The translations under genes and the position numbers were made by a program. Shown in pieces: positions 32,154-49,631 of a DNA stretch of 64,000 nucleotides; positions within the stretch are counted from its first letter, which is position 1; every line of letters begins with the position of its first letter. Source of the stretch: Gemmatimonadota bacterium (GTDB taxonomy: Bacteria; Gemmatimonadota; Gemmatimonadetes; Gemmatimonadales; GWC2-71-9). The notes beneath the pieces were generated by a model. That model did not search any database and had not been told where the DNA came from. It saw only the letters and a program-made list of their open reading frames with translations. The stretch is taken from assembly GCA_003222035.1 (NCBI GenBank), contig QHUS01000052.1, positions 6,003-70,002 of the forward strand, read 5' to 3'.

Positions 32154-33017
32154 TCAGTTGCGCGGCGGCTCCTGTCCCTGGAGAGCCAGCGTGAGCGTGT
32201 CCTGACACTTCTTGCCCCAGGGGTTGAACTTGTTCGCCTTGAATCCCTCTTCCCACGATTGCTTCGCCCGATCCTGATCGCCCGCAAACCAGTAGGCGCG
32301 TCCCAGCTCGTAGTAGGCCTCGATCAGGTTCGGGCCGAGCTTGAGGGTCTTCTGGAAAAACGTCTGCGCGTCCTCGAACATCTCGCGCTGCAGGTAGACG
32401 AGCCCAAGGTAGAAGTGGGCGTACAGCGTCGCCTTCTTGTCGTTGTCGAGGCGGATCGCCTTCGAAAGGTGCTCGATGGCTTCGCCGAAGATGCGCTTCT
32501 TGAGGCAGATGTACCCGACGTTGATGCGGGCGAGGGAGTTGGCGGGCTCCTTCATGAGGACCTTCTGAAACGTGCCGAGCGCGTCGTCGTAGTCCTCATG
32601 CAGCATCTGGCCCCAACCGAGCAGCGACTCGGCCTGCGTCGCGCCGGGGGACAGCTGCAGCGCCTTCTGCAGCGCCTGGATCGCGCCGGCGTAGTCGCCG
32701 AGGGAGATGAGGCTCCATCCCTTTTCGATGAACGTGGACGCACCGATGTGGTCGGCGTGCACAGCGGGTCGCGTGCCGGTGAATTCGGGGGCCGACGCCT
32801 CGGCCGTGGAGGACGCGACCTGCTTGAAGCGCTCGACGAGCTTGCGGACGTCTTCCTTCAGCGCCGACAGCTCGGCAATCAACGCATCCACCCGCTTGAA
32901 GTACGCAATGATCTCGCGCTTCACCGCCTCGCGCTCCGCACCGCCGGTCACCGTGTCGAGGCGCCGCGCGATCTGCTCGTACTCGGCCCGGAGGGCCGGG
33001 AGCGGAGTCTCCGCCAT
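32154..33017 (-). CDS. coiled-coil plus TPR-repeat protein (last gene of the Che/Mgl string)
   Basis: MAETPLPALRAEYEQIARRL.., then TPR repeats (GDYAGAIQALQKALQLSP, YDDALGTFQKVLMKEP, FGEAIEHLSKAIRLD, FEDAQTFFQKTLKLGP). The start ATG overlaps the cheW stop by 1 nt. Confidence 0.8.
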   Translation of the reverse strand: MAETPLPALRAEYEQIARRLDTVTGGAEREAVKREIIAYFKRVDALIAELSALKEDVRKLVERFKQVASSTAEASAPEFTGTRPAVHADHIGASTFIEKGWSLISLGDYAGAIQALQKALQLSPGATQAESLLGWGQMLHEDYDDALGTFQKVLMKEPANSLARINVGYICLKKRIFGEAIEHLSKAIRLDNDKKATLYAHFYLGLVYLQREMFEDAQTFFQKTLKLGPNLIEAYYELGRAYWFAGDQDRAKQSWEEGFKANKFNPWGKKCQDTLTLALQGQEPPRN

Positions 33018-33493
33018 CACGCCTGTGCCGGTTCCCGAACCGCCGTCTCGAGCGCGAGCTTCTCCTTGGACGAGAGGAGACGCGCGGTGTTGAGCACGAT
33101 GATCGTTCGCCCGTCCTTCACGACCAGTCCCGTGATGTACTCCGCCGCGAGACCTTTCACGATGGTCGGCGGCGCCGAGATTTCGGGCGCCGCCACTTGC
33201 AGGACTTCGGTGACCGCGTCGACCACCACGCCCAGCCGTCCCCCCTCCCACTCCAGGATCGCGATCCGCGTCTCCTCACGCAGCGGCGCCGCGACGCCGA
33301 GACGCTTCCGCAGATCCACCAGCGGCACGGGGGCATTCTGATACCGCAGCACGCCTTCGAGAAAGTCCGGCGCCTTGGGGAGCGGCGCGGGCGCCTCATA
33401 GCGGAGAATCCGCTCGACCTGGAAGATGTTGAACGCCAGATCCTGACCGGCCACCTTGAAGGTGACGAGCTGGACGTCGTCGCCTGTCGTCAT
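33017..33493 (-). CDS. cheW: chemotaxis coupling protein CheW
   Basis: LVTFKVAGQDLAFNIFQVERIL..FLEGVLRYQNAPVPLVDLRKRLG..GVVVDAVTEVL. Confidence 0.9.
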   Translation of the reverse strand: MTTGDDVQLVTFKVAGQDLAFNIFQVERILRYEAPAPLPKAPDFLEGVLRYQNAPVPLVDLRKRLGVAAPLREETRIAILEWEGGRLGVVVDAVTEVLQVAAPEISAPPTIVKGLAAEYITGLVVKDGRTIIVLNTARLLSSKEKLALETAVREPAQA

Positions 33494-33918
33494 CCGATCT
33501 TATCTCCCAAGGCATCCAGGTCCAGGATCGGCACCAGGGTGCCGCGACGTCGGGCCACGCCGGAGGCCCAGGGCAGCGACTCGCCGTGCGGTACGGGCAG
33601 GGCACGCTCGCGTACCACGTCGTCGGCGTCGTCCACCTCGAACGCCACCTGGCGCGTGCCCCCGCCCTTTCCGCCGGGCCCCAGCTCCACGAGCACTGCC
33701 GCCCGTCCGCGCTCGGGTGGCGGCGTCCGCTCCCCCAGCAGCGCGCCGAGGTGCACGACGGGAACCAGGCGTCCCCGTAGCGGCGTGAGTCCGCGCATCG
33801 CGGGCAGGGCGCGGGGCACGGAGAGCACTTCGGCCAGGTCTCCGACCTCGAGCACGCGCGCAAGCGGGAGGCCATACTCCTTGCCGTCGACGCGGACCAG
33901 CAGGTAACCGCGGCTCAT
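33490..33918 (-). CDS. CheW-like protein (divergent)
   Basis: LLVRVDGKEYGLPLARVLEV..MRGLTPLRGRLVPVVHLGALLG..AFEVDDADDV; it overlaps the next cheW by 4 nt. Confidence 0.8.
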   Translation of the reverse strand: MSRGYLLVRVDGKEYGLPLARVLEVGDLAEVLSVPRALPAMRGLTPLRGRLVPVVHLGALLGERTPPPERGRAAVLVELGPGGKGGGTRQVAFEVDDADDVVRERALPVPHGESLPWASGVARRRGTLVPILDLDALGDKIG

Positions 33919-33964
33919 GGCTCGCGGCTGAAGCCGCGGCTCGGCCCTGCCGCTAAGGTGGCGC

Positions 33965-35077
33965 TCATTCTGCGCCCCGCACGTTCAATTTGGCTCCCCG
34001 TGCCGTCAGTTGGTCGACCACGCGCTCCGCGATCTCCCCCAAGGGGAAGACCGCGTCTACCCCGCCGATCTGCACGGCGGCCGTCGGCATGCCGGCGATC
34101 ACGGCGGAGGCGCGGTCCTGCGCGATGCCGCCGCCGCCCGCCGCGCGGATCGCGCGTACGCCGTCCGCGCCGTCGCGGCCCATGCCGGTGAGGACGACGC
34201 CGACCGCATGCGGGCCGAACACAAGGGCCACGGAGCGGAACAGTGGATCGGCCGCCGGGCGGACGCCCCAGATAGGCGGCTCCTGGTCGAGCGCGATCGC
34301 GGGGCCATCGGGCGCGCGGACCACCCGCATATGATAATCGCCCGGCGCGACGTACGCCGTGTCGGCGACCACGGGCGTGCCGTCGTCGGCCTCCACCACG
34401 TGGAGCTCGGACAGCGAGTCGAGGCGCTCCGCGAGGGACCGCGTGAAATTCGGCGGCATGTGTTGCACCACGAGCACGGCGGCGCCCCGCCCCGTCGGAA
34501 GCCGCGGGATCAACTCGGCGAGCGCGCGGGGGCCGCCGGTCGACGCGGCCACGGCCACGGCGAACTGGGCCCGCGGGCGGAGCCCCGCTTCGGGCACGCG
34601 GCGGGCGGGCACCGGTGGCCGGGCCATCACGGCGACGCGGGACACGTCGGCCGCGAGGGCGCGGCGCACCGCGGCGCGCAACTCGGGACCCATGCGCAGC
34701 AGCGCCGAGCGGTTCCCTTCGTCGGGCTTGGCGACGATCTCGACTGCGCCCAGCTCCAGCGCGCGGATCGCGGCACCGGTCCCGGGCCCCGCGTGCGCGC
34801 TGACCACCACGATCGGGCGCGGCGTCTCCGACATGATGTAGCCGATCGCGCCCAGGCCGTCGAGCTCGGGCATCTCGAGGTCCATGGTCACGACATCGGG
34901 ATCGAACTGATGCACCTTGCGGACCGCGTCGAATCCGTCGCGGGCGGTCCCCACGACGCGGAACTCGCCGTCCCCCGCGGTATTCGCGCCGCTCAGCACG
35001 TCGCTCAGCACGCGTCGCAGCAACGCGCTGTCATCCACGACGAGAACGCTCGGCCGCCGATCAGAGGACGGTGACAT
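33965..35077 (-). CDS. cheB: protein-glutamate methylesterase CheB (REC plus esterase)
   Basis: [27 protein letters not shown] (REC domain) and [26 protein letters not shown] (esterase domain). The start ATG 35075-35077 overlaps the cheD 3' end by 17 nt. Confidence 0.93.
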
Positions 35078-35582
35078 CGGCCCCCACCGAGCGAACCTCG
35101 ACCCGGCCGTCCCCCACATAGAACCGCACGGAGCGGCCGGACCCACCCCCCACCGCCTCCCGCATCACGGGGATTCCGATGCGACGCAGGACGTCGCGCG
35201 CGGCGACGATGTTCCGTTCGCCCATCTGCATGGAGCCCGGGGTCATGAGCTGGGCGAACATGCTCGCTCCGCCCGCGAGCTTGGCGATCAGGCGCCGCGG
35301 TTCGGCGCCGAGCCGCGTGAGCTCGTGCACCAGCAGCGGGACGGCCGTCTCGGGAAACTTCGCGGGGTTGGTCGCATCGCGTGCGAGGCTGCGCGACGGG
35401 AGCAGGACATGCGCCATCGCCCCGGCCCCCGCCTGCGGATCGTGCAGCATGATCGCGACGCAGGACCCGAGCCCCAGCGTCACGAGCACCGCGCTCCCGC
35501 GTTCGGCGGCCCACTCGGCCACCTTGACGATCCGCTCGGCGGGGGGGAGCGGGGAGGGGGCCGCCCCGTCGCCCGCCCTCAC
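35061..35582 (-). CDS. cheD: chemoreceptor glutamine deamidase CheD
   Basis: [60 protein letters not shown]. The start GTG 35580-35582 overlaps the cheR stop (GTGA). Confidence 0.88.
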
Positions 35583-36403
35583 GCGGGCGTCGCCTTCTGG
35601 TAGATCCGCTCGCGCGGCTCCTCCAGCCGGAACCGGTCCCGCGCGGGGCCGAACAACGTCTCCACCTTGCCGAGGAGCAGCAACCCTCCGGGCGCGAGGG
35701 TATCGGCGAACAGCGTGAACAGCCGTTCCTGCATCGGCCGGTCGAAGTAGATCACGACGTTGCGACACACGATCAGGTCGTAGGGCGCCGCGGGCGCCGG
35801 CTCGCTGGTGAGGTCGTGCTTGAGGACGCGCACGATCCGCTGCAGCTCCGGCACGGGGCGGCGCGGCGGCTCCGGGGTGAAGTAGCGGTGGACCAGCTCG
35901 GCCGGCATCTCGGTGAACGCCGCCTCGGGATACGCGGGTGCCCGGGTGCGCTCGAGACTCGCGCGGTCGATGTCGGTGGCATCGACCCGAGCCCGTCCCA
36001 GCAGCGCGGGCTGGCCCAGCCGGCGCGCCGTCTCGGCGAGCGCCACCGCCATCGTGTATGGCTCCTCCCCCGAGGCGCAGCCGGCGGACCAGGCGCGAAC
36101 CTCCCCGCGGCGCGCTTTCCAGAGTCCCTCGATCCACGGCGCCAGCGCGCGCCACGTTTCCACGTTGCGGAAGAACTTGGTGACGTTGATGGTGAGCGCG
36201 TCGAGCAGCAAATCGTACTCGAGCGCGTCCTCCTCCAGCAGCCGGCCGTAGTCGGCGAACGTGTGAACGCCGCGGGCCCGCATCCGCACCGAGATGCGAC
36301 GCCGCAGGCAGCGGTCCTTGTAGGAGTCGCAGGCGAGGCCCCGCGCCTGCGTGATCTTGCGCGTGAGCGCCCGGAACGCCAGTTCGTCCTGCTCCGACTT
36401 CAC
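35579..36403 (-). CDS. cheR: chemotaxis protein methyltransferase CheR
   Basis: LTINVTKFFRNVETW..VRAWSAGCASGEEPYTMA..IVCRNVVIYFD. The start GTG 36401-36403 overlaps the upstream stop (GTGA). Confidence 0.9.
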   Translation of the reverse strand: MKSEQDELAFRALTRKITQARGLACDSYKDRCLRRRISVRMRARGVHTFADYGRLLEEDALEYDLLLDALTINVTKFFRNVETWRALAPWIEGLWKARRGEVRAWSAGCASGEEPYTMAVALAETARRLGQPALLGRARVDATDIDRASLERTRAPAYPEAAFTEMPAELVHRYFTPEPPRRPVPELQRIVRVLKHDLTSEPAPAAPYDLIVCRNVVIYFDRPMQERLFTLFADTLAPGGLLLLGKVETLFGPARDRFRLEEPRERIYQKATPA

Positions 36404-38016
36404 GACAGCGCGCTCAGGGTGTCCAGATTGGCCTTGACGAGCTCGTGCTTCGGATTGATCTCGAGCGCCTTGCGCCACAGCTGCGCCGCGAGCTCACGGT
36501 TGTTCCGCTTGTACGCAATGTTCCCGAGCTTGAAGTAGACGTCGTCGCCCAGCTCGGGCGCCAGCTCGACCGCCCGACTGTACGCGTCCCAGGCCTCGTC
36601 GTAGCGCGACCCGCGATAGGCCAGGTCGCCGAGATTCTTGGACAGCTGGGGGAGCGACGGCTCGTTCTTGCGCGCCGCCCGCACCAGGTCCTCCGCGCCT
36701 GTCAGATCGCCGGACAGCTCCTTCAGCACGGCGAAGTTGTTCTGCAGCGCGGCGTGCGAGGGATAGGCCTCCACTCCGTCCTCGGCCAGCTCCTCGGCCT
36801 GCTCGAATTCGCCGGCGCCCGCCGCCGCGAGGGAGCGCGCCCAGAACCAGGCGGGCGGGGGCGCTTGTCCGAACAGCTCGCGTGCCCGGTCGAGCCGCCC
36901 GGCGGCGCCGCCGTAGTCACCGCGCTTGAGCGCGACCACGCCCCAGCCGAGATACACTTTGGCATCGGTCCGCGCCCGGGCAGCGGCTTCGGCGTAGGCG
37001 GCCTCCGCCTCGTCCAGCCGCCCCAGCTGCTCGTATGCGAACCCCAGGTTGTGGAACACCGCGGGCCGCCCGCCGCCCTTCTCCGCGGCGAGGCGTAGCG
37101 CCTCCATGGCCTCGCGCCACCGGGCCTGCTTCAACGCCACCAACCCGATGTAGAAGTGGGCACTCGCGTCGCTGCCGCGCAGCTCCGCCACGCGCCGGAA
37201 CTCCCGCGTGGCTTCGTCGAGCATGCCCGTCTTGTAAAACGCCACGCCCAGGTTACGGTGCTCTTCGACGCGCGCGTCGGTAATCTCCGCATCCGCCCCC
37301 GTGGTCGTGCGCCCGGCGCGGTGCACGAACCCCGCCGTGATCAAGCCGTACAGCGCCTTCCCGATCTCGAACTCGCCCAACCCCGAGTCTTCGATCACCT
37401 GGTTCACGTCGCGCGACGCGTCGAGCAGCGGCAGGAGGCGTTGTTGCGCATCCGTGAGTTGGCTTTCGCTGATCGCGATCCGGTCCTTGTCTACGACGAA
37501 GATCAGGTCGAATGACGGGATCTTTTTTTCGATCAGGCTCCATTCGTCCACCCGGCGGGCGCCCTCGAGCAGCAGCGATTCCGGGTTGATCGAGACGAGG
37601 AAATCCTGTGGCCCCGGGCGGACGTCGGCCTCGAAGTTGAAGGTCCCCTGCGTCCACGTGAACAGGTAATAAACCGACTCCTCGATCTGCACGCGCATGT
37701 AGCGCTCGAGATCTCCCTGCGTGATCACCCCCATCGCGACCAGGACCTCGCCCAGCCTCTTGCCGTGCTCCTTGGTCTGCCGGTGCACGGCCACGTCGAG
37801 CTGCTCCTGGGTGATCTTGCTGTGCTTCACGAGGATGTCGCCCAAGCGGTCGCGTCGGTTCACGATCGACGCGTAGCAGATGCGCCCCTTCTCGAAGTAG
37901 ATGTAGCCGAAGTTCGAGCGGTCGGCGATGGACAGGCATCCCGTCTTCTGCCCGAGCGCCAGGAGCTGGAGCACGTCGGGGAGGGACGCTTCCTTGAGCG
38001 AGCCCTTGATGGCCAT
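36400..38016 (-). CDS. PATAN(DUF4388)-like domain protein with MshEN-like helical insert and C-terminal TPR repeats (paralog 1)
   Basis: [49 protein letters not shown] (DUF4388/PATAN signature), tandem RLGxxLV..G.I....L......Q motifs, and at least 6 TPR-like repeats. The start ATG 38014-38016 overlaps the upstream stop by 1 nt. Confidence 0.8.
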   Translation of the reverse strand: MAIKGSLKEASLPDVLQLLALGQKTGCLSIADRSNFGYIYFEKGRICYASIVNRRDRLGDILVKHSKITQEQLDVAVHRQTKEHGKRLGEVLVAMGVITQGDLERYMRVQIEESVYYLFTWTQGTFNFEADVRPGPQDFLVSINPESLLLEGARRVDEWSLIEKKIPSFDLIFVVDKDRIAISESQLTDAQQRLLPLLDASRDVNQVIEDSGLGEFEIGKALYGLITAGFVHRAGRTTTGADAEITDARVEEHRNLGVAFYKTGMLDEATREFRRVAELRGSDASAHFYIGLVALKQARWREAMEALRLAAEKGGGRPAVFHNLGFAYEQLGRLDEAEAAYAEAAARARTDAKVYLGWGVVALKRGDYGGAAGRLDRARELFGQAPPPAWFWARSLAAAGAGEFEQAEELAEDGVEAYPSHAALQNNFAVLKELSGDLTGAEDLVRAARKNEPSLPQLSKNLGDLAYRGSRYDEAWDAYSRAVELAPELGDDVYFKLGNIAYKRNNRELAAQLWRKALEINPKHELVKANLDTLSALS

Positions 38017-39980
38017 CAGCGAAACTCCTCGATCATGCGGTCCGCCACGTCGATCCAGTCCCAGACCATCTTCTCGCGACTCTTGACGCCTCCGAGGCTC
38101 GAGACCACGAGACCGCTGGTGCGAAACCCGCTGGAGCGTCGGCTGTCGCGCGGCGCCTGGCCTTCGAGCACTTCGCGCGCGAGGCCCGCCGAGACAGGCC
38201 GCCCATCCTGGGCGGCCCCCGCCTCGATCACGCGCTGGATCAGGCCCACGAGGCCGCGCACCGAGTCGGCGGGCCGGTCGGCGAGGTAGTCGATCAGCGC
38301 CGGTTCCGGGGTCACGCCCTGCTGCGCCAGCAAACGCTCGAGCACGGCGCGCCTCACGTCGCGGTCGGGCTCCTTGATCTCCGCCACCAGTCCGCCCTCG
38401 AGGCGCGACACGATGCGCTCCTCGATCCCGACCAGCGTATTGGGATGCGCCGGCGCCGTGAACACGAGCTGGCGATCCTTGTCCTGGAGCAGGTTGAACA
38501 GGTTGAACAGCTCTTCCTGTGTCCGTTCCTTGCCGGTCAGCAGATGGATGTCGTCGAGCAACAACGCCGTGGCTCGGCGGTAGCGGGCGCGCCACCAGTC
38601 CACGCGGTTGCCGTCGATCGCGCCGATCAGCTCGTCGATGAACGCCTGGGTGGAGAGGCACGCCACGACGGCGCGGCGGCCGCGCGCCAACTCGAGCCCG
38701 ACCGCGTTGAGCAGGTGCGTCTTGCCGAGCCCGCTCTTCCCGACGAGGACGAGCGGGTTGTACTTCTTCCCCGGCCGCTCGAGCACGGCCCGGGCCGCGC
38801 TGACCGCGACCTGGTTCGACGGGCCCACGGCGTACGCGGCGAGCGGAAACGCCGCTGACGGCCCGGGGGGCGGCGCGGCCCCATCCCGGACCTTCGTAGC
38901 GGCCTGCTCCGCCTCCTGCAGCCGCTCGGGGTCTCGGAACACGCTGTCGCCGGCGGCCTGGGGGTCGAGCTCCCCCACCTCCGCCTCGAGCGCTTTGAGG
39001 CGCTCGACGTCCTCCGCGAACCCCGCGATGGCCTCGTCCACCGCAGTTGGCGCGTCCTGCTGCAGGAGCGCCTCGAGCCGATGCGTGCGGTATCCCTCGC
39101 CTTCCCACCGCAGCACGGCTTCGCCCACCCGAGCGCGCCACGCTTCGACGGCTTTTCCGACGGTGACGGTCACGTCGGCGAGGAATTGTCCGAACTCGTC
39201 CCCGCCGGCCGCGGCGGCCGGGACGGGCCCGGCCTTCTCCGCCGCCCCCTTTGCCCGCTGCGCGTCGAGCCCCAGGATCCGTTTGACCGTCTCCGCGTTG
39301 ATCGAGGTATCGTGGACGGCCTGGAACGCCACGAGCCGGTTCAACGCGCCCATCAACTCGCGCACGTTGCCGAGCTCGGCTTGCGCCACGGTCTCGAGTA
39401 CGCCGGGGTCGAACCGCGCGCCCCGCTCTTCGGCCTTCCGCCGCAGAATCGCCACGCGGGTTTCGTACTCGGGCGTCGCGATGTCCACCACCAGCCCGCC
39501 CGACAGCCGGGAGATCAGCCGCTCGTCGAGATCGGCGATCTCGGCGGGCGGGCGATCGCTCGTCAGGACGATCTGGCGCCCCGCGGCCTGTAACGCCTCG
39601 GTGAGCCGCAGCAGCTCCGACTGCATCTCCTTGCGGTTCGTCAGGAATTGCACGTCGTCCACGAGGAGCACGTCCACGTTCTGGAAGCGGCGACGGAACG
39701 CGTCACCCTGTCCCGCCGCCACGCTCGCGTGGAACGCTTCGACGTACTCGTCGAGCGTCAGGTACTCGATGTTCAGCGCGGGTGCCGCCTTCTTGGCGGC
39801 GTGGCCGATCGCCATGAGGAGATGCGTCTTGCCCAGACCCGGGCCGCTATAGACGAACAGCGGGTTGTATGCCGCGCCCGGGCTCTCGGCCACGGTGCGG
39901 CCCGCCGTGACGGCCAGCCGGTTCGCGGCGCCCACGACGAACGTGTCGAAGGAGTACTTCGGGTTGAGCGCGCTCGTCAT
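38016..39980 (-). CDS. tandem DnaA-type AAA+ ATPase (two DnaA domain-III-like modules; no DnaA domain I/II or DNA-binding domain IV)
   Basis: Module 1: [78 protein letters not shown]. Module 2: [66 protein letters not shown]. The start ATG overlaps the mglA stop (ATGA). Confidence 0.8.
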
Positions 39981-40576
39981 GCCGTGGTCCCGGCGGCGAG
40001 CCTTTTGAGCACCAGCTCGGAGATGCCCTTGAGTGTCTCGAACACGCCCTTCCCGTGCAGCGCGTCAGCGCTGAAGCTCGGGACTCCCCGGAAATTGAGC
40101 GCGTCGTCCAGATCGGACGCCGAGAGGATCAGCTCGCGCGGCAGGTCCTGCTTGTTGTACTGCAGGACCAGCGGAACGGTGCGGATGTCCACGCCGTGCT
40201 CCAGCAAATTGCTCTGCAGGTTCTGCAGGCTCTCGAGGTTCTCATCGAGCTGGCGCGCCTGACTGTCGGCGACGAACACGACGCCGTCGGCCCCCTGGAG
40301 CACCAGCCGGCGCGTGGCGTTGTAGTAGACCTGGCCGGGGACCGTGTAGAGCTGAAACCGCGTCGCGAATCCCGAGATCTGCCCCAGGTCGATCGGCAGA
40401 AAGTCGAAGAACAGGGTGCGGTCGGTCTGCGTGGCCAGGGAGACCATGCGTCCCCGACGCGAGTCCGGGACGCGGCCATAGATGTAGTGCAGGTTCGTCG
40501 TCTTGCCAGACCGCCCCGGCCCGTAGTAGACGATTTTGCACGTGATCTCGCGCGTCGTGAAGTTGACCAGAGACAC
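39977..40576 (-). CDS. mglA: Ras-like small GTPase MglA
   Basis: [77 protein letters not shown] is collinear with, and highly similar to, Myxococcus MglA as I recall it. Confidence 0.92.
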
Positions 40577-40580
40577 GGGG

Positions 40581-42288: not shown

Positions 42289-43438
42289 GCGTCGAGTTCC
42301 CCGTGCCCGCCAAGGTCTGGGCGGCGGCCTTGGCGCGGTGCACGGCGTCGCTCTGCGCCAGCTCCGCTTCCGAGTGCGCGGCCAGGCGCTCCCACTGGTC
42401 CCACTGCTCCACGGCCTCGCCGAACCGCCCGGTGGCGGCGAGGGCGTAACCGAGGATGCGGTGCGCGGCGACGCTCAAGGGGTCGAGCCGAAGCGCCCCG
42501 CGCAACTCTTCCACGGCGTCGGCAGCGCGTCCCCCGGCGAGCGCGATGCGGCCCAGCAGCAGGTGCACGTCGGGATCATGGGGATGCACGCCCGCCGCCT
42601 GCTCGGCCAGGCTACGCGCTTCCTCCAGGTCGCGCCGCCGCAGCGCGTCTTCCGCGCGCGCCACGAGCGCCGCCAGATCGGCGGCGAGCGTGGTGTGCTC
42701 GCGCTTGGTCGTACCGGGGTCGGAGAGCACGATCACCCCGGCGCTCTCGAGCCCGAACAGGGTCTTGGCGACGTCGAACTCCGAGCGTCCCAGGTCGGAG
42801 GCGATGGCCCGCACGTCCCGCGCGCCGTTGATCATCGCGAGCATCTCCCACTCGGGCGGTAGCAGGTCGAGCCCGCCCTCGACGCCTCCCTGGGGCGGGG
42901 CGAGCGTGGGCACGACGCCCAGGTGGGGAATGCGGCCCTCGATACGGGACCACTCGTCGATGCGCCGCGCGCCTTCCATCAGCAGCGCCTCCGTGGGAAT
43001 GCGCACGGTGGCGTCCGCCGGCACCTCGTCGGGCAGGCCCTCGGTGAACGAGAAGTAGCCTTCGCGCCAGCTCATGACCTCGAAGACGACCTCTTCGATC
43101 TGGAATCGCACCTGGCGCTCGAGCTCGCGGCGCGTGAGGGCGCCGATCGCGACGAGGATCTCGCCCAGGCGGCGTTTGTCGCCCTGGCGCAGCTGCATGT
43201 CGCGCGCGCGGTGGATGTCGGCCTCGCCGATCTTGCCGGTCCGCAGCAGCAGCGCGCCGATCGGATGGGGGTTCGAGCGAATCTCCGCGGCAATGATGGC
43301 GCCGCCCTCGAACGAGATCATGCCCGCGTTGTTGCGGAGCTCGGAGGTGACACGCAGCGCCCCGGTCTTCCGGCTCAGGTCGAGCAGCTGGAAGACATCG
43401 TGGATACCGAGCTCGCGGAGCGGGCCTTCGATCGGCAT
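42281..43438 (-). CDS. PATAN(DUF4388)-like domain protein with MshEN-like insert and TPR repeats (paralog 2)
   Basis: MPIEGPLRELGIHDVFQLLDLSRKTGALRVTSELRNNAGMISFEGGAIIAA, then RLGEILVAIGALTRRELERQVRFQ, and C-terminal TPRs. The architecture matches 36400..38016. Confidence 0.8.
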   Translation of the reverse strand: MPIEGPLRELGIHDVFQLLDLSRKTGALRVTSELRNNAGMISFEGGAIIAAEIRSNPHPIGALLLRTGKIGEADIHRARDMQLRQGDKRRLGEILVAIGALTRRELERQVRFQIEEVVFEVMSWREGYFSFTEGLPDEVPADATVRIPTEALLMEGARRIDEWSRIEGRIPHLGVVPTLAPPQGGVEGGLDLLPPEWEMLAMINGARDVRAIASDLGRSEFDVAKTLFGLESAGVIVLSDPGTTKREHTTLAADLAALVARAEDALRRRDLEEARSLAEQAAGVHPHDPDVHLLLGRIALAGGRAADAVEELRGALRLDPLSVAAHRILGYALAATGRFGEAVEQWDQWERLAAHSEAELAQSDAVHRAKAAAQTLAGTGNSTHG

Positions 43439-43452
43439 GGGGGGGGGCTGGC

Positions 43453-46149
43453 CTAATCCGAGGCGAAGATGTGTTGCAGGTCGACGGCGGTGCGCGCGTG
43501 CGCGCGCGCCGCCTGTGCGAACGCGCCAGCGGGGTCGATGCGCGTCACTTTCCCCCACGCCTGCACCGCCTCGTCGTAGCGGTGCAGGCGCGCGAGCGCC
43601 ACGCCGAGCTGAAACAGCGCTTCCACCTGGTCGGGGTCGAACTTGAGCGCGCGCTGGAACGCCTCGAGCGCCTGGGCATCGCGCTTGTCGTCCAGCAGGG
43701 TACGCCCGAGCAGCAGCAGCGCCAGCAGATCGTACGGGTCCTGCTCGAGCATCTCTGCGAGTCGCACGACGGCCTGGCGGTGGCGCCCGGAGCGCCGCAG
43801 CAGGTCGGCCAGCGCCAGCCCGGCCTCGTGAAAGGTCGGCAACGCATCGAGGGCGCGCTCGTAGGCGTCCTGGGCGTCGCGCCACGCTTCCTTGTCCTCG
43901 TGCAGCCGGCCCAGGTCGAGCCAGACCTGGATATAGCCGCGGTCGAGCTCGAGCGCGGACCGGTACGCGGCGAGCGCCCCCGCCTTATCGCCGACCTTGA
44001 GGGCGACGTCGCCCTGCAACTTGTGGAGGTCGGCGCGCCCAGGCGCGCGGGTCTGCGCCCGCTGCAGCGCGACGAGAGCTCCGGCGGCATCGCCTGCCGC
44101 CGCCCGCCCTTTGGCCGCGGCGACGAGGGCATCCACGTTCTCCGGTGCGAGCGCCAGCAGTTCCTCCGCCAGCCCGCGCGCCTCGTCGCCACGCGGGCCG
44201 CCCAGGGCGAACAACGCCTTGACCTCCCCGAGGCGCGCGTCGGCGCGGTCGGGTTCGAGCCCCCGGACCTCGCGGTAGCGCTCGAGCGCCTCGCCGTGCA
44301 GGCCCCGCTTCGCGAAGATGTCGCCCAGCAGCACGCCGGCGTGGGCGCGGCTGGCACCCCGCTGCACGGCGCGCACCGTCTCGGCCGCGGCGACATCCAG
44401 CAGGCCCTTGCTCACGTAATCGCGCGCCAGCGCGAGGGGATCGTCGGCGGACTTGGCGGTTGGCGACTCCGCGGCGGCAACCGCCGGCGCCAGGTCCTGA
44501 AAGATGTTGTCGAGCAGCCGCTCGTCGAAGGTGAAGTCCTCGCCGATCGTCTCGGCCGTCACGTCCGCCGAAATCTCGGGCGCGATGCCGATCGTGCCCT
44601 TCTCGTACTGCAGGTCGATGGTGAGGGCGAACTTCTGTGAGACGTAATAGGGATCGAGCTCGAGCGCCCGTTTTGTGGCGCGCAACGCGCCGTCGAAGTC
44701 GCCCAGGTTGGACAGGGTGAAGCTCAGGTTGTAGTGCGCGCCCGCGTGGTGCGGGTCCACCTCGACGGCGCGCACGAAGGCGTTGCGCGCGTCCTGAAAG
44801 CGCTTCAGCTCCACGAGCACCAGCCCCACGCCGTTCCACGCCGGCGCGGAGCTGGCGTCGCTCGACAGGACCTGGCGGTACGCTTCCAGCGACAGTTGGA
44901 AGCGGCGCAGTTGAAACAGCAGCAGGGCCAGGTTGAGGCGCGCGGCGGTGAACGTCCCCTGGAGCCGCAGCGCGGTCCGGAACGACTCGATCGCGGTGTC
45001 GGCGTCTTTGCCCGAGGCCTGGACCACGCCGAGGTTGTTCCACGCCAGCGCGTACTTCAGGTCCACCTCGACCGCCTGGCGGTACGAGGCGACCGCCTGC
45101 GTCGTGCGGCCCGCCTGGTGCAGAACGACGCCGTGCTCGTTCCAGAGCTTGGGCGAGTCGGGGACTTCGCGGAGCAGCGTTTCGTACAGCTCCAGGGCGG
45201 CCGGGAAGTCGCGCTTCAGGAGGTGAACCTCGGCCGTCGCCTGCAGCGCGAGGCGCCGATCCTCGCCGCGCTCGAGCCCGAGCCGGTATTCGCGCAGTGC
45301 CTCGTTATAGTAGCCCTTCTGCCGGAACGCGAGCCCGAGATTGTAGTGGGCCAGCGCGTTGCCCTCCACCACCTGCGGCTCGGGCGCCAGGCGCTGGCGC
45401 CGCTCCTGCATCTTGCGCTCGGCGTTGTAGCGCTCGAGCGAGAGGTTGGTCTGTGCCCGGGCGAGCGGCGGGTTGAGCTCGATGGCGCGCTTGGAGGACG
45501 CACGCGCCTCCTGATGCCGGCCCATGTCGCCCAGCACGAACGCCATCAGGTAGTGGGCGTTGGCGTTGTCGGGGTTCAGCTCCACGGCGCGCTCCAGGGC
45601 GGCGAGCGCCTCCGTGTTCAACCCGCGATTGTAGTAGATCTCGCCGAGGTAGAAGTGCACGACCGTGGACTCGGGCTCGAGTTCGACGGCGCGCGCGAAC
45701 CAGTCGGTCGCCGCCTCGGGACGGCCCCGGTTCTTTTCCGCGAGCCCGAGCTGGATGATCGCGGCCACATCCTTGGAGCGGTGGGCCAGCAGCTGCTCGA
45801 ACTCTTTGACCGCGTCATCGTGCGCGCCGAGGATCGCGTAGGCGCGTCCCAGCTCCCAGCGGGCGTCGCGGTCGTCGGGCGCCTGGCGGAGGCGCTCGCG
45901 CAACTGCGCGACCCGACGGTCGTAATAACCCGTGTCGTGATAGGCGATCTCGAGGTTGCGCTGCGCGACCTGCATCTTCGGATCGAGCTCGAGCGCGCGC
46001 GTGAACGCCCCGATTGCCTCTTCGACGAGGCCCTTCTGGTAGTAGAGAACGCCGAGATTGTTGTGCGCCCCGGCGTCCGACGGATCGATCCGGCGCGCGA
46101 AGGATCGGAGGACGGCGAGGTCGCGTTCCGAGAGCGCCGGCGCCGTCAC
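43453..46149 (-). CDS. large TPR-repeat protein (898 aa)
   Basis: About 20 consecutive TPR units (e.g. AHNNLGVLYYQKGLVEEAIGAFTRALELDP, VHFYLGEIYYNRGLNTEALAALERAVELNP, AWNNLGVVQASGKDADTAIESFRTALRLQ). Confidence 0.85.
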   Translation of the reverse strand: MTAPALSERDLAVLRSFARRIDPSDAGAHNNLGVLYYQKGLVEEAIGAFTRALELDPKMQVAQRNLEIAYHDTGYYDRRVAQLRERLRQAPDDRDARWELGRAYAILGAHDDAVKEFEQLLAHRSKDVAAIIQLGLAEKNRGRPEAATDWFARAVELEPESTVVHFYLGEIYYNRGLNTEALAALERAVELNPDNANAHYLMAFVLGDMGRHQEARASSKRAIELNPPLARAQTNLSLERYNAERKMQERRQRLAPEPQVVEGNALAHYNLGLAFRQKGYYNEALREYRLGLERGEDRRLALQATAEVHLLKRDFPAALELYETLLREVPDSPKLWNEHGVVLHQAGRTTQAVASYRQAVEVDLKYALAWNNLGVVQASGKDADTAIESFRTALRLQGTFTAARLNLALLLFQLRRFQLSLEAYRQVLSSDASSAPAWNGVGLVLVELKRFQDARNAFVRAVEVDPHHAGAHYNLSFTLSNLGDFDGALRATKRALELDPYYVSQKFALTIDLQYEKGTIGIAPEISADVTAETIGEDFTFDERLLDNIFQDLAPAVAAAESPTAKSADDPLALARDYVSKGLLDVAAAETVRAVQRGASRAHAGVLLGDIFAKRGLHGEALERYREVRGLEPDRADARLGEVKALFALGGPRGDEARGLAEELLALAPENVDALVAAAKGRAAAGDAAGALVALQRAQTRAPGRADLHKLQGDVALKVGDKAGALAAYRSALELDRGYIQVWLDLGRLHEDKEAWRDAQDAYERALDALPTFHEAGLALADLLRRSGRHRQAVVRLAEMLEQDPYDLLALLLLGRTLLDDKRDAQALEAFQRALKFDPDQVEALFQLGVALARLHRYDEAVQAWGKVTRIDPAGAFAQAARAHARTAVDLQHIFASD

Positions 46150-46152
46150 GGG

Positions 46153-46770
46153 TCAGCTCAGGCGGATGGCGTCAAAGATGGCCTTGAGCGACGCCAGATC
46201 GGGGAGCAGCAGGAAGTCGCCCCGCAGCCCGTCCCCCGCGTCGATCTGCAACTCGGTCTCGACGCAGAACACGAAGTCGCGCTCGTGCCCGAAATTCAGA
46301 TAGGTGGTCGTGAGCACCGCCGCCGCCAGGTCCACCACGAGGCTCGGGACGGAGGGCAGCAGCAACATCCCCATGAAGTCCGAGAGCGCATTCAGGTACG
46401 CACCCGCCAGGATGTTGCCCGCCTCCTTGAGACAGGACTGCTCCAGCGCGTCGTACACGGCGGTCGTGCCGATGGGCCGGCGCAGCAGCATGTCGCACAG
46501 CCGGCGGCCCGCCGACTCGGGGAACAAGAGCAGCGTGCGCCCCGTCAGATCCCCCAGCATGTGCATCAGGACCGCCGCCACCACGTCCTGCGGATTGCCC
46601 AGCAGGTCGGGGACCTCTTCGAGGCGCGCGATGTTGATCTGCGGCACGCTGATCATGATCCGGCAGTTCGTGAGCTGCGACAGGGCGGTGGCGGCGTGAC
46701 CGGCGCCGATGTTCGCCACCTCGCGCAACGCGTCGATCTGCCGCTCCTTGAGATCCCGCACGTCCTCCAT
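46153..46770 (-). CDS. cheC: CheY-P phosphatase CheC
   Basis: IDALREVANIGAGHAATALSQL and a second EAGNILAGAYLNALS half-site (the CheC/FliY duplicated motif). Confidence 0.88.
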   Translation of the reverse strand: MEDVRDLKERQIDALREVANIGAGHAATALSQLTNCRIMISVPQINIARLEEVPDLLGNPQDVVAAVLMHMLGDLTGRTLLLFPESAGRRLCDMLLRRPIGTTAVYDALEQSCLKEAGNILAGAYLNALSDFMGMLLLPSVPSLVVDLAAAVLTTTYLNFGHERDFVFCVETELQIDAGDGLRGDFLLLPDLASLKAIFDAIRLS

Positions 46771-46786
46771 TGCGCCTCCGCTCGCC

Positions 46787-48682
46787 CTACACTAGCCCGC
46801 CCGCATCGAGAATCAGCGCGGGCATCCCGTCGCCCATGATCGTCGCGCCGCTGAATACCGGCAGCGTGCCGCGAGGGGCGTCGAATCCCTTGACCACGAT
46901 CTCCTGCTGCCCCAGCATCCCGTCGACCACGATGCCGCTGCGCCGGTCACCCATTTCGAGCACGATGATCGGCCAGCGGGCGGGCGGATCGCCGGCCACC
47001 CCGAGCAGCCGCCGGAGGTGCACCAGCGGAACCACGCGGTCGCGCAGTACGATCGCCTCCCGCCCCTCGACGATGGTCGTGGCCTGTACGCCGAATTCCA
47101 CCGTCTCCGCTACGTAGGTGAGCGGCAGCGCGTAGCGCTCCGGTCCCACCCCGGCGATCAGAGCGCGCACGATCGCCAGGGTGACCGGCAGCCGCATCAC
47201 GAACGTAGTGCCCTTCCCCGCCTCCGTCCGGATATCGAGCGAGCCTCCCAGCGCCCGGATGCGCGTCATGGCCACGTCGATGCCCACGCCGCGCCCCGAC
47301 ACGCTCGTTACGGCCTCGGCGGTCGAGAATCCGGGCCGGGCGAGGACGCGCAGCAGCTGATCGTCGGTGAGCGCCTCGGCGTGCGCATCCACGATGCCCT
47401 CCCGCTTGGCCCGCGCGAGGACCTTCGCGCGGTCGATGCCGCGTCCGTCGTCCCGCACGCTGATCGCGACGCTGGCGCGCTCGCGCACCGCCGTCAGCAC
47501 GATCTCTCCCTCGGGCTTCTTGCCGCGGCGCTTGCGGTCGGCGGGCGACTCGATCCCGTGATCCACGGCGTTCCGCAACAGGTGCAGCAGCGGATCGCCC
47601 AGCTCGTCGAGGATCGCGCGGTCGACCTCGATTTCCTTCCCCTCCACGCGGAACGCGACCTGCTTCCCGAGCTCGCGCGCCAGGTCACGCACCAGCCGGG
47701 GGAAGCGATCGAACACCTGCCACACGGGCGTCATGCGCGCCTGGATGATCTCGGCCTGCAGCTCGCTCGAGAGCCGGGACACCTGAATCGCAACGTCGTC
47801 GATCGCGGGGTCACGCCGCTCGGCGGCGAGCTCGTTGAGCCGGCCGCGCACCGTGACGAGCTCGCCGATGAGATCCATCAGACCGTCGAGCCGTCCGAGG
47901 TCGACGCGGATGTGACGGGTCCTGGCGTCCGGCGTCCCGGCGCCCGACGGACCCGGCGCTTCGGGCGCGGGGCGCCGCTCCTCGCCGCCCACCGTGACGT
48001 GCTCGACGTCCCCCGCGGATCGCACCACCCGTTCGATGTCCCCCGGCGCGGCCGCGCCGCCGATCCGGAAGCTGAACCGCCCGTCGAAGTCCTCGGCCTC
48101 GAATGCCACCTCGGGCGGCGTCACGTCGTGGATCTCGCCCAGCGACCGCGCCTTCTTGAGCGCGAGCACCGCGCGTCCCCCCTTGAGCGGCGCCTCGGCG
48201 CGCAGGGTCACCTGGACCAGCCGTCCCGGCGTGATCGGGCCCGCCACCTCCGGCGCCGGCCCGGGCGTGGCGGTCGGGCGGGCGCCCGATCGAACGCCCG
48301 CGAGCGCCGCGGCCGCGCCGTCGAGATCGGCGACGACCTCCGCGACGTCGATCTCGTCCTCGCGGCCCGCGACCGACAGCTCCACCGCGTGCTCGAGCCC
48401 GTCCCGCGCCCGAAACAGCAGCTGCAGGAGGTCGTCCGTGGCCGGTCGCGCGCCGCGCCGCACCAGGTCGAGCAGGTTCTCGGCCCGGTGGGCCAGGTCG
48501 GTGACGCGCGCATAACCCATCGTCGCCGCCATGCCCTTCACGGTGTGCACGGCGCGGAACAGTCCACCGACCGGTGCGGGGTTGGCGGGAGCCCGCTCCC
48601 AGTCGAGCAGCAGCTGGTTGCAGGCGCTCAAGTGCTCCCGGCTTTCCGCGAGGAACAGCTCGGCGTACTGCGACAGGTCCAT
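46787..48682 (-). CDS. cheA: chemotaxis histidine kinase CheA
   Basis: Hpt domain (FRAVHTVKGMAATMG), a dimerisation region, HATPase (HLLRNAVDHGIE..DDGRGID..GRGVGIDV..GKGTTF) and a C-terminal CheW-like domain. Confidence 0.95.
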   Translation of the reverse strand: MDLSQYAELFLAESREHLSACNQLLLDWERAPANPAPVGGLFRAVHTVKGMAATMGYARVTDLAHRAENLLDLVRRGARPATDDLLQLLFRARDGLEHAVELSVAGREDEIDVAEVVADLDGAAAALAGVRSGARPTATPGPAPEVAGPITPGRLVQVTLRAEAPLKGGRAVLALKKARSLGEIHDVTPPEVAFEAEDFDGRFSFRIGGAAAPGDIERVVRSAGDVEHVTVGGEERRPAPEAPGPSGAGTPDARTRHIRVDLGRLDGLMDLIGELVTVRGRLNELAAERRDPAIDDVAIQVSRLSSELQAEIIQARMTPVWQVFDRFPRLVRDLARELGKQVAFRVEGKEIEVDRAILDELGDPLLHLLRNAVDHGIESPADRKRRGKKPEGEIVLTAVRERASVAISVRDDGRGIDRAKVLARAKREGIVDAHAEALTDDQLLRVLARPGFSTAEAVTSVSGRGVGIDVAMTRIRALGGSLDIRTEAGKGTTFVMRLPVTLAIVRALIAGVGPERYALPLTYVAETVEFGVQATTIVEGREAIVLRDRVVPLVHLRRLLGVAGDPPARWPIIVLEMGDRRSGIVVDGMLGQQEIVVKGFDAPRGTLPVFSGATIMGDGMPALILDAGGLV

Positions 48683-48686
48683 GTGG

Positions 48687-49049
48687 TCAGCCGAGCACGC
48701 GCTGAACGGCCTCGAGCACGCGCGATGGCTGGAACGGCTTCACGACGAAGTCCTTCGCGCCGGCCTGGATCGCCTCGACGACGAGGGCCTGCTGGCCCAT
48801 CGCGCTGCACATGAGAATCTTCGCGTCGGGATCCTGCTTGACGATCTCGCGCACCGCGTCGATCCCGCCCATGTCCGGCATCACGATGTCCATGGTGACG
48901 AGATCGGGCTTGAGTTGGCGGTATTTCTCGACGGCCTGCGATCCCGTTTCGGCCTCGCCCACCACCTCGAAGCCGGCTTGCGCCAGGATGTCGCTGATCA
49001 TCGTCCGCATGAAGATGGCGTCGTCGCAGACGAGGACAGTGTGGCTCAC
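48687..49049 (-). CDS. cheY: response regulator CheY
   Basis: 120-aa single REC domain: VLVCDDAIFMR..LVTMDIVMPDMGG..KDFVVKPF. Confidence 0.92.
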   Translation of the reverse strand: MSHTVLVCDDAIFMRTMISDILAQAGFEVVGEAETGSQAVEKYRQLKPDLVTMDIVMPDMGGIDAVREIVKQDPDAKILMCSAMGQQALVVEAIQAGAKDFVVKPFQPSRVLEAVQRVLG

Positions 49050-49058
49050 ACATCCTCC

Positions 49059-49631
49059 CTAGGAAGACAGAATGGGGGTTAGCAGCGCGTCGGTATCGAG
49101 AACCACGAAGAGTTGACCGGCGCGGCGCCCGACGGCCCGCACTAGCGTCGGATCGATGCCGGGCAGTGCCTGCCGGCGTTCCAGCGCCTCTCCACCCACC
49201 GAGAGGAGGTCCACGACCTCATCGACCGTGAAACCGAGGACCTTTTTGCCCCCGTCCAGCTCGAGCAACACCGTCGTCCCCGCCACGTCTCCCCCTTCTC
49301 CTCCCACCCTCTCTCCCCCTCCACCCGCCCCGCCACCGGTCATGGGGTCTGAGGCGGGGGCAGGAGCAGGGGCAGGGCTTGGGGCGGACCCGGAAGCGGG
49401 GGCGGGGGGGAGGGGGGGGGCGGGGGCGGCCTGACGCAACGCCCGCCATCCCTCCACCACCGTCACGAGGGTGCCCCGCACGTTCACAATTCCTGCCACG
49501 ACTGGGGGCGCCCCGGGGATCCGGGTCGGCTCCAGCCGCGGCAGGATTTCACGGACCCGCTCTGCCTCGGTGGCGCAGAGGAGGTTGCCCACCCGAAACA
49601 GCAGCAGTCGGACGACCCCCGCGTCACTCAT
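49059..49631 (-). CDS. CheW-like protein with a ~50-aa Pro/Ala/Gly low-complexity insert
   Basis: LLLFRVGNLLCATEAERVREIL..VAGIVNVRGTLVTVV..LGFTVDEVVDLL, with the insert APAPPLPPAPASGSAPSPAPAPAPAS..GGGAGGGGERVGGEGGD. The start ATG 49629-49631 overlaps the rluD end. Confidence 0.8.
   Translation of the reverse strand: MSDAGVVRLLLFRVGNLLCATEAERVREILPRLEPTRIPGAPPVVAGIVNVRGTLVTVVEGWRALRQAAPAPPLPPAPASGSAPSPAPAPAPASDPMTGGGAGGGGERVGGEGGDVAGTTVLLELDGGKKVLGFTVDEVVDLLSVGGEALERRQALPGIDPTLVRAVGRRAGQLFVVLDTDALLTPILSS

Follow-up and report, generated by a model that had tools for sequence, protein, structure and literature searches.

The Che-Mgl gene string

The 64-kb stretch of Gemmatimonadota DNA analyzed here (the window) is ∼70% GC, with nearly all genes on the minus strand, and contains a gene string in which chemosensory (che) genes are interleaved with those for the small GTPase MglA, MglB, further Roadblock proteins, two PATAN-TPR paralogues, and a tandem DnaA-like ATPase, referred to below as 2xDnaA. 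A reading of the letters alone (the sequence-only reading) had described a co-directional string of 19 genes, and Pfam scans of the 19 open reading frames (ORFs) that it named confirm all 19 domain calls and the gene order, with every gene on the minus strand. Measured on refined starts, the cluster junctions range from -17 to +46 nucleotides (nt), with many 1-, 4-, and 8-nt overlaps, ATGA and GTGA among them. The position of the GTPase module inside the che operon, together with the PATAN-TPR and tandem DnaA-like proteins, is real and is conserved in place in 43 to 77 species-level loci. The cluster is best read as chemosensory control of an MglA polarity switch, which is a known kind of system, with a novel ATPase component. 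The genes, in the direction of transcription, are as follows; protein lengths are in amino acids (aa), and the layers named are described in the next section.

49059-49631, minus strand: CheW-like protein 1 (cheW1), with Pfam CheW at 70.5 bits in two stretches and a Pro/Gly-rich insertion; variable Che layer
48687-49049, minus strand: CheY, a single-domain response regulator (Response_reg, E 1.9e-31)
46787-48682, minus strand: CheA, organized as Hpt-P2-dimerisation-HATPase-CheW without a fused receiver; variable Che layer
46153-46770, minus strand: predicted CheC-type CheY-P phosphatase (Pfam CheC)
43453-46149, minus strand: 898-aa all-TPR protein (TPR898; TPR families)
42281-43438, minus strand: PATAN(DUF4388)-TPR paralogue 1 (PATAN1; DUF4388, E 4e-30)
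41404-42288, minus strand: TPR-Roadblock fusion (TPR and Robl_LC7)
41048-41407, minus strand: stand-alone Roadblock/LC7 protein, an MglB paralogue (Robl_LC7, 30.3 bits; Robl protein of PDB entry 7f8m, E 3.6e-6)
40581-41051, minus strand: MglB orthologue, a Roadblock protein and predicted GTPase-activating protein (GAP) of MglA
39977-40576, minus strand: MglA, group-1 small GTPase
38016-39980, minus strand: 2xDnaA, with tandem DnaA-domain-III AAA+ modules (Bac_DnaA twice, E 2e-99)
36400-38016, minus strand: PATAN(DUF4388)-TPR paralogue 2 (PATAN2; DUF4388, E 1.4e-39), predicted to be translationally coupled to 2xDnaA, whose stop its start overlaps
35579-36403, minus strand: CheR methyltransferase (CheR and CheR_N, without a TPR domain); variable Che layer
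35061-35582, minus strand: CheD (E 1.3e-28; start codon uncertain); variable Che layer
33965-35077, minus strand: CheB methylesterase with receiver (CheB_methylest and Response_reg); variable Che layer
33490-33918 and 33017-33493, minus strand: two more CheW genes, cheW2 and cheW3 (Pfam CheW), found only in the 'full' clade
32154-33017, minus strand: 287-aa protein with an N-terminal coiled coil and TPR repeats (TPR287); constant Gemmatimonadales layer
31255-32118, minus strand: membrane-anchored HExxH (MA-clan) peptidase (PepMA), with Peptidase_MA_2 at 24 bits, below the cut-off

The PepMA orthologues of relatives give Peptidase_MA_2 matches without the below-cut-off mark.

Conservation and layering of the locus

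A 2xDnaA scan of one genome per GTDB species yields 130 relatives, of which the best 80, at 71-90% identity and nearly all labelled as Gemmatimonadales or Gemmatimonadota metagenome-assembled genomes (MAGs), were analyzed. Genes were counted as in place by tblastn of 21 window proteins, using only loci whose sequence covers the expected position. The same gene order, from rluD just upstream of cheW1 through the gene for a 602-aa TPR protein (TPR602) downstream, is found in all ∼36 full-length loci, and cluster genes are in place in all countable loci from 43/43 (cheW1) up to 77/77 (2xDnaA), including TPR898 (54/54) and TPR287 (50/50), with PepMA at 46/49. Chance juxtaposition or an assembly artefact is thereby rejected and is given next to no credence, as nothing speaks for it, gene order and content recur identically in dozens of species-level MAGs that several projects assembled independently, and the locus can still be recognised at protein identities as low as 35-40%. 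Constraint within the cluster is strongest on CheY (median identity between species, 97%) and MglA (90%), followed by CheC (85%), Roadblock (82%), and PATAN2 and TPR287 (both 81%), with cheW1 lowest (57%); CheR, CheB, and CheD are conserved at 61-85%.

More distant members were drawn from a 50%-identity representative library, and their contigs were looked up for gene content. The loci differ as follows, with the percentages giving 2xDnaA identity to the window protein.

L083 (39%): content like that of the window, without cheW2 and cheW3
L085 (36%): without cheW2, cheW3, and cheD
L087 (43%; 1.14-Mb contig): cheW-cheY-cheA-cheC upstream and cheD only downstream, without cheR, cheB, cheW2, and cheW3
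L081 and L082 (36%) and L093 (39%): CheY-CheC-TPR-PATAN-TPR-Roadblock-MglB-MglA-2xDnaA-PATAN-TPR(-PepMA), without cheA, cheW, cheR, cheD, and cheB
L084 and L088 (Longimicrobiales): rluD-2xDnaA-PATAN-TPR-PepMA only, with no Mgl or Che gene at the locus
L091 (a Gemmatimonadaceae MAG): the downstream half, TPR through PepMA, on a contig that ends before the CheW1-CheC block
L092: the full set except PepMA

Two of these loci have local peculiarities. In L091, the genes for an extra AAA_22 ATPase (266 aa) and an enlarged CheW (306 aa) lie between cheB and the last cheW (11792-13509), and in L088 the PATAN-TPR gene beside 2xDnaA is split by a DDE transposase insertion sequence into a 55-aa remnant and a 250-aa TPR remainder (11948-14460).

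In a neighbour-joining tree of 2xDnaA sequences the locus grades form separate clades, with Longimicrobiales outside. PATAN2 adjoins 2xDnaA in every locus, Longimicrobiales L084 included, and rluD is the constant upstream neighbour across the phylum (L081, L083-L085, L087, L088, and L092). The phylum-wide invariant core is 2xDnaA with a PATAN-TPR protein (and PepMA), following rluD. Added upstream of this core is a Gemmatimonadales layer of CheY, CheC, a large TPR protein, PATAN, three Roadblock proteins (one of them MglB), and MglA; CheY and CheC occur in all Gemmatimonadales-type loci, always with the Mgl module and even in L081, where CheA is missing, and TPR287 is also retained in this che-poor locus. 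The most dispensable layer is CheA/CheW with CheR, CheD, CheB, and CheW, which is present, partial, or missing according to lineage.

A family of tandem DnaA-derived ATPases

The 654-aa 2xDnaA consists of two AAA+ modules of the DnaA domain III type joined by a conserved helical linker. Domain 1, which is 45-50% identical to domain III of Bacillus subtilis DnaA, matches it at 212 bits, and in the AlphaFold model (predicted local distance difference test [pLDDT] score, 84) it superimposes on that domain with a TM score of 0.94 and a root mean square deviation (rmsd) of 1.4 Å, at 45% identity. The DnaA-specific motifs, including Walker A and B, sensor I, the box VII Arg, and sensor II, are found in 2xDnaA, and in a family alignment domain 1 has an invariant Lys and an invariant His in Walker A. 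In the window lineage neither module is degenerate, and in Gemmatimonadales both look ATPase-competent; in Longimicrobiales the second module is degenerate. Hallmarks of the family are the linker consensus DEFxxFL...W..R...RW..EGY.T.RLE.LL and a C-terminal EKxVWxWP motif.

Only Bac_DnaA (domain III) is found in 2xDnaA; domains I and II, domain IV (Bac_DnaA_C), and a clamp-binding motif were not detected, and the protein begins at domain III. Identification as the DnaA initiator is rejected on this architecture, which lacks domains I/II and IV, despite a TIGR00362 score of 495 bits against a 344-bit cut-off, and identification as Hda is rejected on its two modules, the lack of a QL[SP]LPL-like N terminus, and a score of 186 bits against the 195-bit Hda cut-off. 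Thus, 2xDnaA shares the AAA+ fold and DnaA-specific motifs with DnaA and Hda, but differs from them in having two modules, the helical linker, and the EKxVWxWP motif, and in being encoded in a signalling cluster and not at a replication origin. The family is large, with dozens of 50%-identity clusters and many full-length members of ∼650 aa at 34-57% identity to the query, and all members with a taxon label or a retrieved locus are from Gemmatimonadota. By its architecture and motifs, 2xDnaA clearly represents a new family of tandem, DnaA-derived predicted ATPases and not the initiator.

In JGI annotation, members of the family (P0001-P0120) are labelled 'chromosomal replication initiator protein DnaA', which poses a systematic risk of misannotation for the phylum.

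MglA, MglB, and the large TPR proteins

The small GTPase is closely related to Myxococcus xanthus MglA (5ymx; E 1.6e-73, 56% identity) and to Thermus MglA (E 7e-70), and alignment to the M. xanthus protein reveals the G1 P-loop, the intrinsic Arg next to the G2 Thr, and the TVPGQ G3 motif of group-1 MglA. The mglB gene ends 4 nt before mglA, in keeping with the coupled MglB gene that is a criterion for group 1. Judged by these features, the protein is a bona fide group-1 MglA orthologue. The third of the Roadblock proteins is, by similarity to M. xanthus MglB (6hjm; E 2.3e-9), an MglB orthologue; its sole NCBIfam match is the MglB model, at 38 bits and far under the 200-bit cut-off of that model. 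TPR898 is a candidate MglA effector or scaffold, analogous to SgmX.

Group-1 MglA has been recorded in Gemmatimonadetes, with occasional PATAN neighbours (Wuichet and Søgaard-Andersen 2015, PMC4316618). That survey names neither che genes nor a DnaA-like gene beside mglA, and its table entries for Gemmatimonas aurantiaca T-27, GAU_1115 ('MglB>MglA>') and GAU_1409 ('PATAN>MglA>-PATAN>'), could not be mapped onto the present cluster. It also reports that, in Myxococcus and in Bdellovibrio, mglA lies apart from the genes of its signalling partners.

A putative c-di-GMP motif in the PATAN-TPR proteins

The PATAN domain of PATAN2 contains an insertion with a tandem motif resembling the cyclic di-GMP (c-di-GMP)-binding MshEN domain:

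37687-37848, minus strand: putative tandem MshEN-type c-di-GMP motif in PATAN2 (residues 57-110), RLGDILVKHSKITQEQLDVAVHRQ ... RLGEVLVAMGVITQGDLERYMRVQ

The MshEN consensus is two tandem 24-residue motifs of the form RLGxx(L/V/I)(L/V/I)xxG(L/V/I)(L/V/I)xxxxLxxxLxxQ (PMC5013675), and it is present in PATAN2, which scores 55.8 bits against NF053729 (MshE-related c-di-GMP motif; cut-off, 38). Sequence comparison with the N-terminal domain of Vibrio cholerae MshE (5htl) and with Thermus PilF (6f8l) gives an E value of ∼3e-5, and the motifs are conserved in PATAN2 orthologues phylum-wide. The corresponding segment of PATAN1 (∼43100-43262; residues 59-113) scores 27 bits against NF053729, below the cut-off, and the first Arg of its first motif is lost in the window lineage; both motifs are intact in the PATAN1 orthologues of L081, L083, and L085.

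A model of the PATAN2 N-terminal region (window 37282-38016), built from two sequences and with a pLDDT of 74, places the insertion inside DUF4388 as two helical hairpins. The insertion superimposes on c-di-GMP-bound 5htl and 8pfa at 1.1-1.4 Å with 30-36% identity (MshE, 1.3 Å over 56 columns), with a best Foldseek E value of just 0.02. That the PATAN insertion is homologous to the N1 repeats found in type II secretion system (T2SS) and type IV pilus (T4P) ATPases has already been noted (preprint 10.1101/2021.06.11.447907); the explicit c-di-GMP consensus in the insertion is our own reading, and binding is putative. The remainder of the PATAN model gives weak Foldseek matches to GATOR1/SEA-complex subunits (GAPs of Rag GTPases) with E values of ∼1 and probabilities of ≤0.9, and as these are too weak, a longin/Roadblock-like or winged-helix PATAN core is not claimed.

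Whereas the MshEN domains of MshE, PilB, and PilF belong to ATPases, the motif in PATAN2 sits as an insertion in the PATAN domain of a non-ATPase protein. The cyanobacterial PatA-type regulators, in which PATAN is fused to a receiver (PixG, PixE, and LsiR of the Tax/Pix systems), resemble the proteins described here in having an alpha-helical insertion of two repeats and in being genetically linked to chemosensory genes. They differ in that PATAN is fused here to TPRs instead of a receiver, CheY is a separate gene, and the full MshEN consensus is kept; in agreement with this, Pfam finds no Response_reg match in the PATAN-TPR proteins, whose TPR repeats follow the PATAN domain. The MglA and 2xDnaA partners of the Gemmatimonadota cluster are absent in cyanobacteria.

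Che proteins and chemoreceptors

By Pfam and NCBIfam, the cluster codes for an F1-class gene set, with CheC and CheD accompanying classical CheA, CheW, CheY, CheR, and CheB; CheA shows the classical arrangement of five domains. CheY shares 67% identity with Thermotoga maritima CheY (E 1.1e-51), with archaeal CheY proteins next, and CheC is closest to those of Thermotogales, although its score of 164 bits against the NCBIfam model CheC_Thtogales is below that model's 250-bit cut-off. The catalytic Ser, His, and Asp motifs of CheB and the two E-x2-N active-site motifs of CheC are readable in the translations.

No methyl-accepting chemotaxis protein (MCP) signalling domain was found in the window, as the sequence-only reading had noted, with a best E value of 0.37 in a six-frame, unfiltered phmmer search with Escherichia coli Tsr and a consensus. 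None was found in 80 related loci (±10 kb; standard phmmer, nothing at E≤1e-3), and no MCP family is reported for any called gene of the loci that were fetched later. MCPs are often encoded apart from che operons, and to our knowledge they are the only known substrates of CheR, CheB, and CheD. The readable catalytic motifs of CheB and CheC suggest that a methyl-accepting substrate is encoded elsewhere, and the chemoreceptors are likely to lie elsewhere in the genome.

Comparison with known chemosensory and polarity systems

The closest known parallel is the M. xanthus Frz-MglA/MglB(/MglC)-RomR/RomX-SgmX system, with which the cluster shares a Che-type phosphorelay, a group-1 MglA, MglB and Roadblock paralogues, and large TPR proteins, as well as a predicted logic in which response-regulator phosphorylation resets pole identity. 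The modules are merged here in one string, whereas in Myxococcus they are at separate loci and mglA is not near its signalling partners (PMC4316618), as the sequence-only reading had pointed out. Other differences from Frz are that no FrzCD-type cytoplasmic MCP is present at the locus (window and 80 related loci), that CheA lacks the receiver found in FrzE and CheR lacks the TPR domain found in FrzF, and that CheC and CheD are present and the PATAN-TPR proteins and 2xDnaA are integral. Judged by these components, the resemblance to Frz is one of logic, not of family membership. Gene linkage, with CheY and CheC always accompanying the Mgl module, supports a putative output through response regulators onto MglA/MglB polarity.

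The F1-class chemotaxis systems of Thermotoga and Bacillus have the same CheA-CheW-CheY-CheC-CheD-CheR-CheB set, and CheY similarity is very high. Unlike in those systems, the che genes form two blocks around the GTPase/PATAN module, no MCP, CheV, or flagellar genes lie nearby (±10 kb in relatives), and che content varies between sister lineages. A full-text literature search found no description of this gene order, of the 2xDnaA family, or of a DnaA-like protein linked to MglA or T4P, and the suggestion that no characterised system has this composition thus stands.

Genomic setting and extent of the string

The 19 genes stand as described in the sequence-only reading, but the boundaries that it gave do not. 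The string does not begin at cheW1, as rluD overlaps it by 8 nt; the lspA/rluD junction is itself an ATGA overlap, so that tight packing reaches upstream of rluD. At the other end, PepMA is followed by a small ORF and a tRNA gene. The flanking features are as follows.

49624-50640, minus strand: rluD-type pseudouridine synthase (Pfam PseudoU_synth_2 and S4), its stop overlapping the cheW1 start by 8 nt
31035-31220, minus strand: 61-aa ORF with two predicted transmembrane helices, directly after PepMA
30946-31019, minus strand: tRNA-Val (ARAGORN and Rfam), marking the downstream end of the string

A gene of 59-68 aa is called at the position of the 61-aa ORF in L081, L083-L085, L087, L088, and L092. 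The tRNA-Val (30946-31019) and a tRNA-Asp (28991-29066) bracket the gene for TPR602, a lipoprotein-like TPR protein that separates the cluster from mraW, and an Rfam scan of 28-52 kb shows nothing beyond these two tRNAs. A promoter and terminator scan of the string is uninformative at 70% GC, giving three promoter-like sites where 0.8 would be expected (two on the wrong strand) and fewer terminator-like sites than expected.

In the window, the order is ftsH ... cdaA-ylmE-divIVA-like-PNP-ileS-dksA-like-lspA-rluD, the cluster, tRNA-Val, the TPR602 gene, tRNA-Asp, and mraW, followed by ftsI-murE-murF-mraY-murD-ftsW-murG-murC-ftsQ, an ORF at 14.5-15.8 kb in the usual ftsA position, and ftsZ. The part from ftsH to rluD is identical in Longimicrobiales (window 54749-57842 and 49624-55232; L088 437-9964), whereas the head of the division and cell wall (dcw) cluster (mraW-ftsI-mur...ftsZ), which follows the locus in Gemmatimonadales, is replaced there by unrelated genes. 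The divIVA-ileS-lspA-rluD order is similar to that at the end of the dcw region in Firmicutes. Neither the window nor the relatives have a called gene of mraZ size upstream of mraW, although no specific mraZ search was made. Elsewhere in the window, a 780-aa minus-strand ORF (9605-11947) between ftsY-like and hisA/F-like genes has no Pfam match, leaving ∼9.7-11.4 kb without annotation.

Type IV pili and analogous proteins in Fermentibacteria

Several of the parts have known connections to T4P. The Synechocystis PATAN domain binds PilB1 as well as PilC's N-terminal domain and suffices for output, and the M. xanthus PATAN protein SgnC is needed for social (S) motility, as cited in the same preprint (10.1101/2021.06.11.447907); MglAB genes are often near PATAN genes (preprint 10.1101/2021.06.11.447907; PMC4316618).

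The representative search also returned two giant matches, P0200 and P0209, in which an MshEN domain is followed by two DnaA-type ATPases separated by a very long coiled coil. P0200 lies on L086 in an array of MshEN-DnaA genes (4309-15923) between pilD and pilB-pilT-pilC-pilS-pilR, and the same array is present in two more genomes, beside a pilin gene and pilB in L090 (5619-17217) and beside pilD in L089 (5797-15198), a contig that breaks off within the array. Candidatus Fermentibacteria is the label of the family, whose array proteins of ∼400, 980, and 1990 aa join MshEN to a single DnaA-type ATPase domain or to a pair of them, the 1990-aa protein also having a coiled coil of >1000 residues; no description of them was found in the literature. 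Like the Gemmatimonadota proteins, these fusions combine non-replicative DnaA-type modules (tandem ones too, with a long helical linker) with MshEN, but they do so in one polypeptide and not in neighbouring genes, and they lie beside pil genes with no MglA or che genes nearby. Orthology to 2xDnaA is rejected, as their domains are 50-58% identical to B. subtilis DnaA versus 37-42% to domain 1 of the window protein. The ranking of Gemmatimonadota 2xDnaA next after the Fermentibacteria family is inflated by double-domain scoring and is not used.

Proposed function and alternatives

A polarity or surface-motility role, which the sequence-only reading had put forward, is the best-supported reading of the cluster. 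Specifically, we propose, with a probability of roughly 0.5, that the locus codes for a layered, Gemmatimonadota-specific cell-polarity controller that is Frz/Mgl-like, is assembled in one supercluster with a new ATPase, and probably acts on type IV pili. Chemoreceptors encoded elsewhere would drive CheA-CheW, and CheY~P would be turned over by CheC (with CheD), with CheR/CheB adaptation where these are present. CheY~P may then act on the PATAN-TPR proteins, on the MglA-MglB-Roadblock switch, or on both; the step to PATAN is suggested by the fusion of PATAN to a receiver in cyanobacterial PatA-type regulators (a Rosetta stone relationship). The outcome would be a resetting of which pole holds MglA-GTP, and MglA-GTP, the TPR proteins, and the predicted c-di-GMP-sensing PATAN domains would engage machinery at the pole, the likeliest candidate being the type IV pilus motor (PilB/PilC). 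2xDnaA, bound to PATAN-TPR, could serve as a scaffold or switch that oligomerises in an ATP-dependent manner. The target is most likely to be type IV pili because PATAN binds PilB1/PilC in Synechocystis and SgnC is needed for S-motility, and because MglA controls T4P polarity in Myxococcus and MshEN is a T4P/T2SS module.

Several observations weigh against this proposal. No pil, flagellar, or gliding gene is present in the 64-kb window, and the F1 (flagellar/archaellar-type) look of CheY and CheC fits a swimming output at least as well. The 2xDnaA and PATAN-TPR core exists without MglA, so that its role need not be MglA-dependent, and the position of the locus between divIVA...ileS-rluD and the dcw cluster could point to division and not motility. 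The Fermentibacteria association is, by the domain identities, an analogous recruitment and not orthology.

The swimming output is the basis of one alternative, in which the che genes are an ordinary F1-class flagellar chemotaxis operon with MCPs elsewhere and CheY~P acting on FliM, sharing a transcript with an unrelated MglA/PATAN module. The affinities of CheY (67% to T. maritima, then archaeal) and CheC (Thermotogales-like at 164 bits), the presence of CheD, and the five-domain CheA all favour it, and G. aurantiaca is described as flagellated. It is nonetheless unlikely, since the che genes flank and interleave with the Mgl/PATAN genes in two blocks, in the same order in all 43 to 77 loci, CheY and CheC stay with the Mgl module where cheA, cheW, cheR, cheD, and cheB are gone, and no flagellar gene is nearby. 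Less probable still is the suggestion of the sequence-only reading that the Che pathway has no receptors, with CheA being activated by PATAN/TPR proteins or the AAA+ ATPase in place of MCPs. The lack of an MCP signalling domain in the window and the 80 related loci, the three CheW proteins, and the abundant TPR scaffolds are consistent with it, but the habitual location of MCPs away from che operons and the conservation of CheR, CheB, and CheD, with MCPs as the known substrates, argue otherwise, and CheR and CheB are dispensable in L087. PATAN, TPR, and 2xDnaA genes persist without CheA/CheW, such that their products are not primarily CheA activators; Che is the least constant layer, and because the pair of 2xDnaA and PATAN-TPR occurs without any Che or Mgl gene at the locus, it is not primarily a receptor surrogate.

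The setting of the locus invites a different explanation, in which the core (with the MglA switch in Gemmatimonadales) is responsible not for motility but for polarity in the cell cycle (in asymmetric or budding division, for instance, or in the maturation of the chromosome or the pole), with the ATPase coupling to DNA or DnaA. Domain 1 is about 45-50% identical to DnaA domain III (TM score, 0.94), ftsH-cdaA-ylmE-divIVA-PNP-ileS-(lspA)-rluD is always found before the locus and, in Gemmatimonadales, mraW-ftsL-ftsI-mur...ftsZ directly after it, and the core is kept in Longimicrobiales without MglA or Che at the locus. In addition, pole development is under c-di-GMP control in other bacteria, and the type genus takes its name from budding. 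Set against these points, 2xDnaA lacks the DNA-binding domain IV and a clamp-binding motif, the dcw adjacency may be inherited synteny and is not kept in Longimicrobiales, and PATAN, MshEN, and MglA have type IV pilus components as their known partners; we regard this explanation as improbable. A bolder and similarly doubtful version is that 2xDnaA, the PATAN-TPR protein with its c-di-GMP motif, and the membrane MA-peptidase would form a Gemmatimonadota-specific, initiator-derived pole-organising machine through which pole identity is tied to c-di-GMP and to the state of the chromosome or cell cycle (in budding or asymmetric division, for example), and that in Gemmatimonadales this machine would have been placed under MglA and then under chemosensory control.

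Implications

The link from Frz to MglA in Myxococcus had to be worked out genetically because the modules are scattered, whereas here the whole proposed circuit is in one conserved string. From linkage alone the candidate partners can be read off, namely CheY/CheC together with the GTPase switch, the two PATAN-TPR adaptors with their putative c-di-GMP motifs, three Roadblock proteins, and 2xDnaA. A large family labelled DnaA by annotation pipelines is also brought to light that is not the initiator, and the association of a DnaA-type ATPase with MshEN/c-di-GMP and type IV pili appears to be recurrent in two phyla of the Fibrobacterota-Chlorobiota-Bacteroidota (FCB) group. The graded loci (core; core with Mgl and CheY/CheC; and these with partial or full Che) form a natural deletion series that reveals the obligatory parts, and if the pole-organising machine proves to be real, the locus would be a natural stepwise record of the assembly of a polarity circuit.

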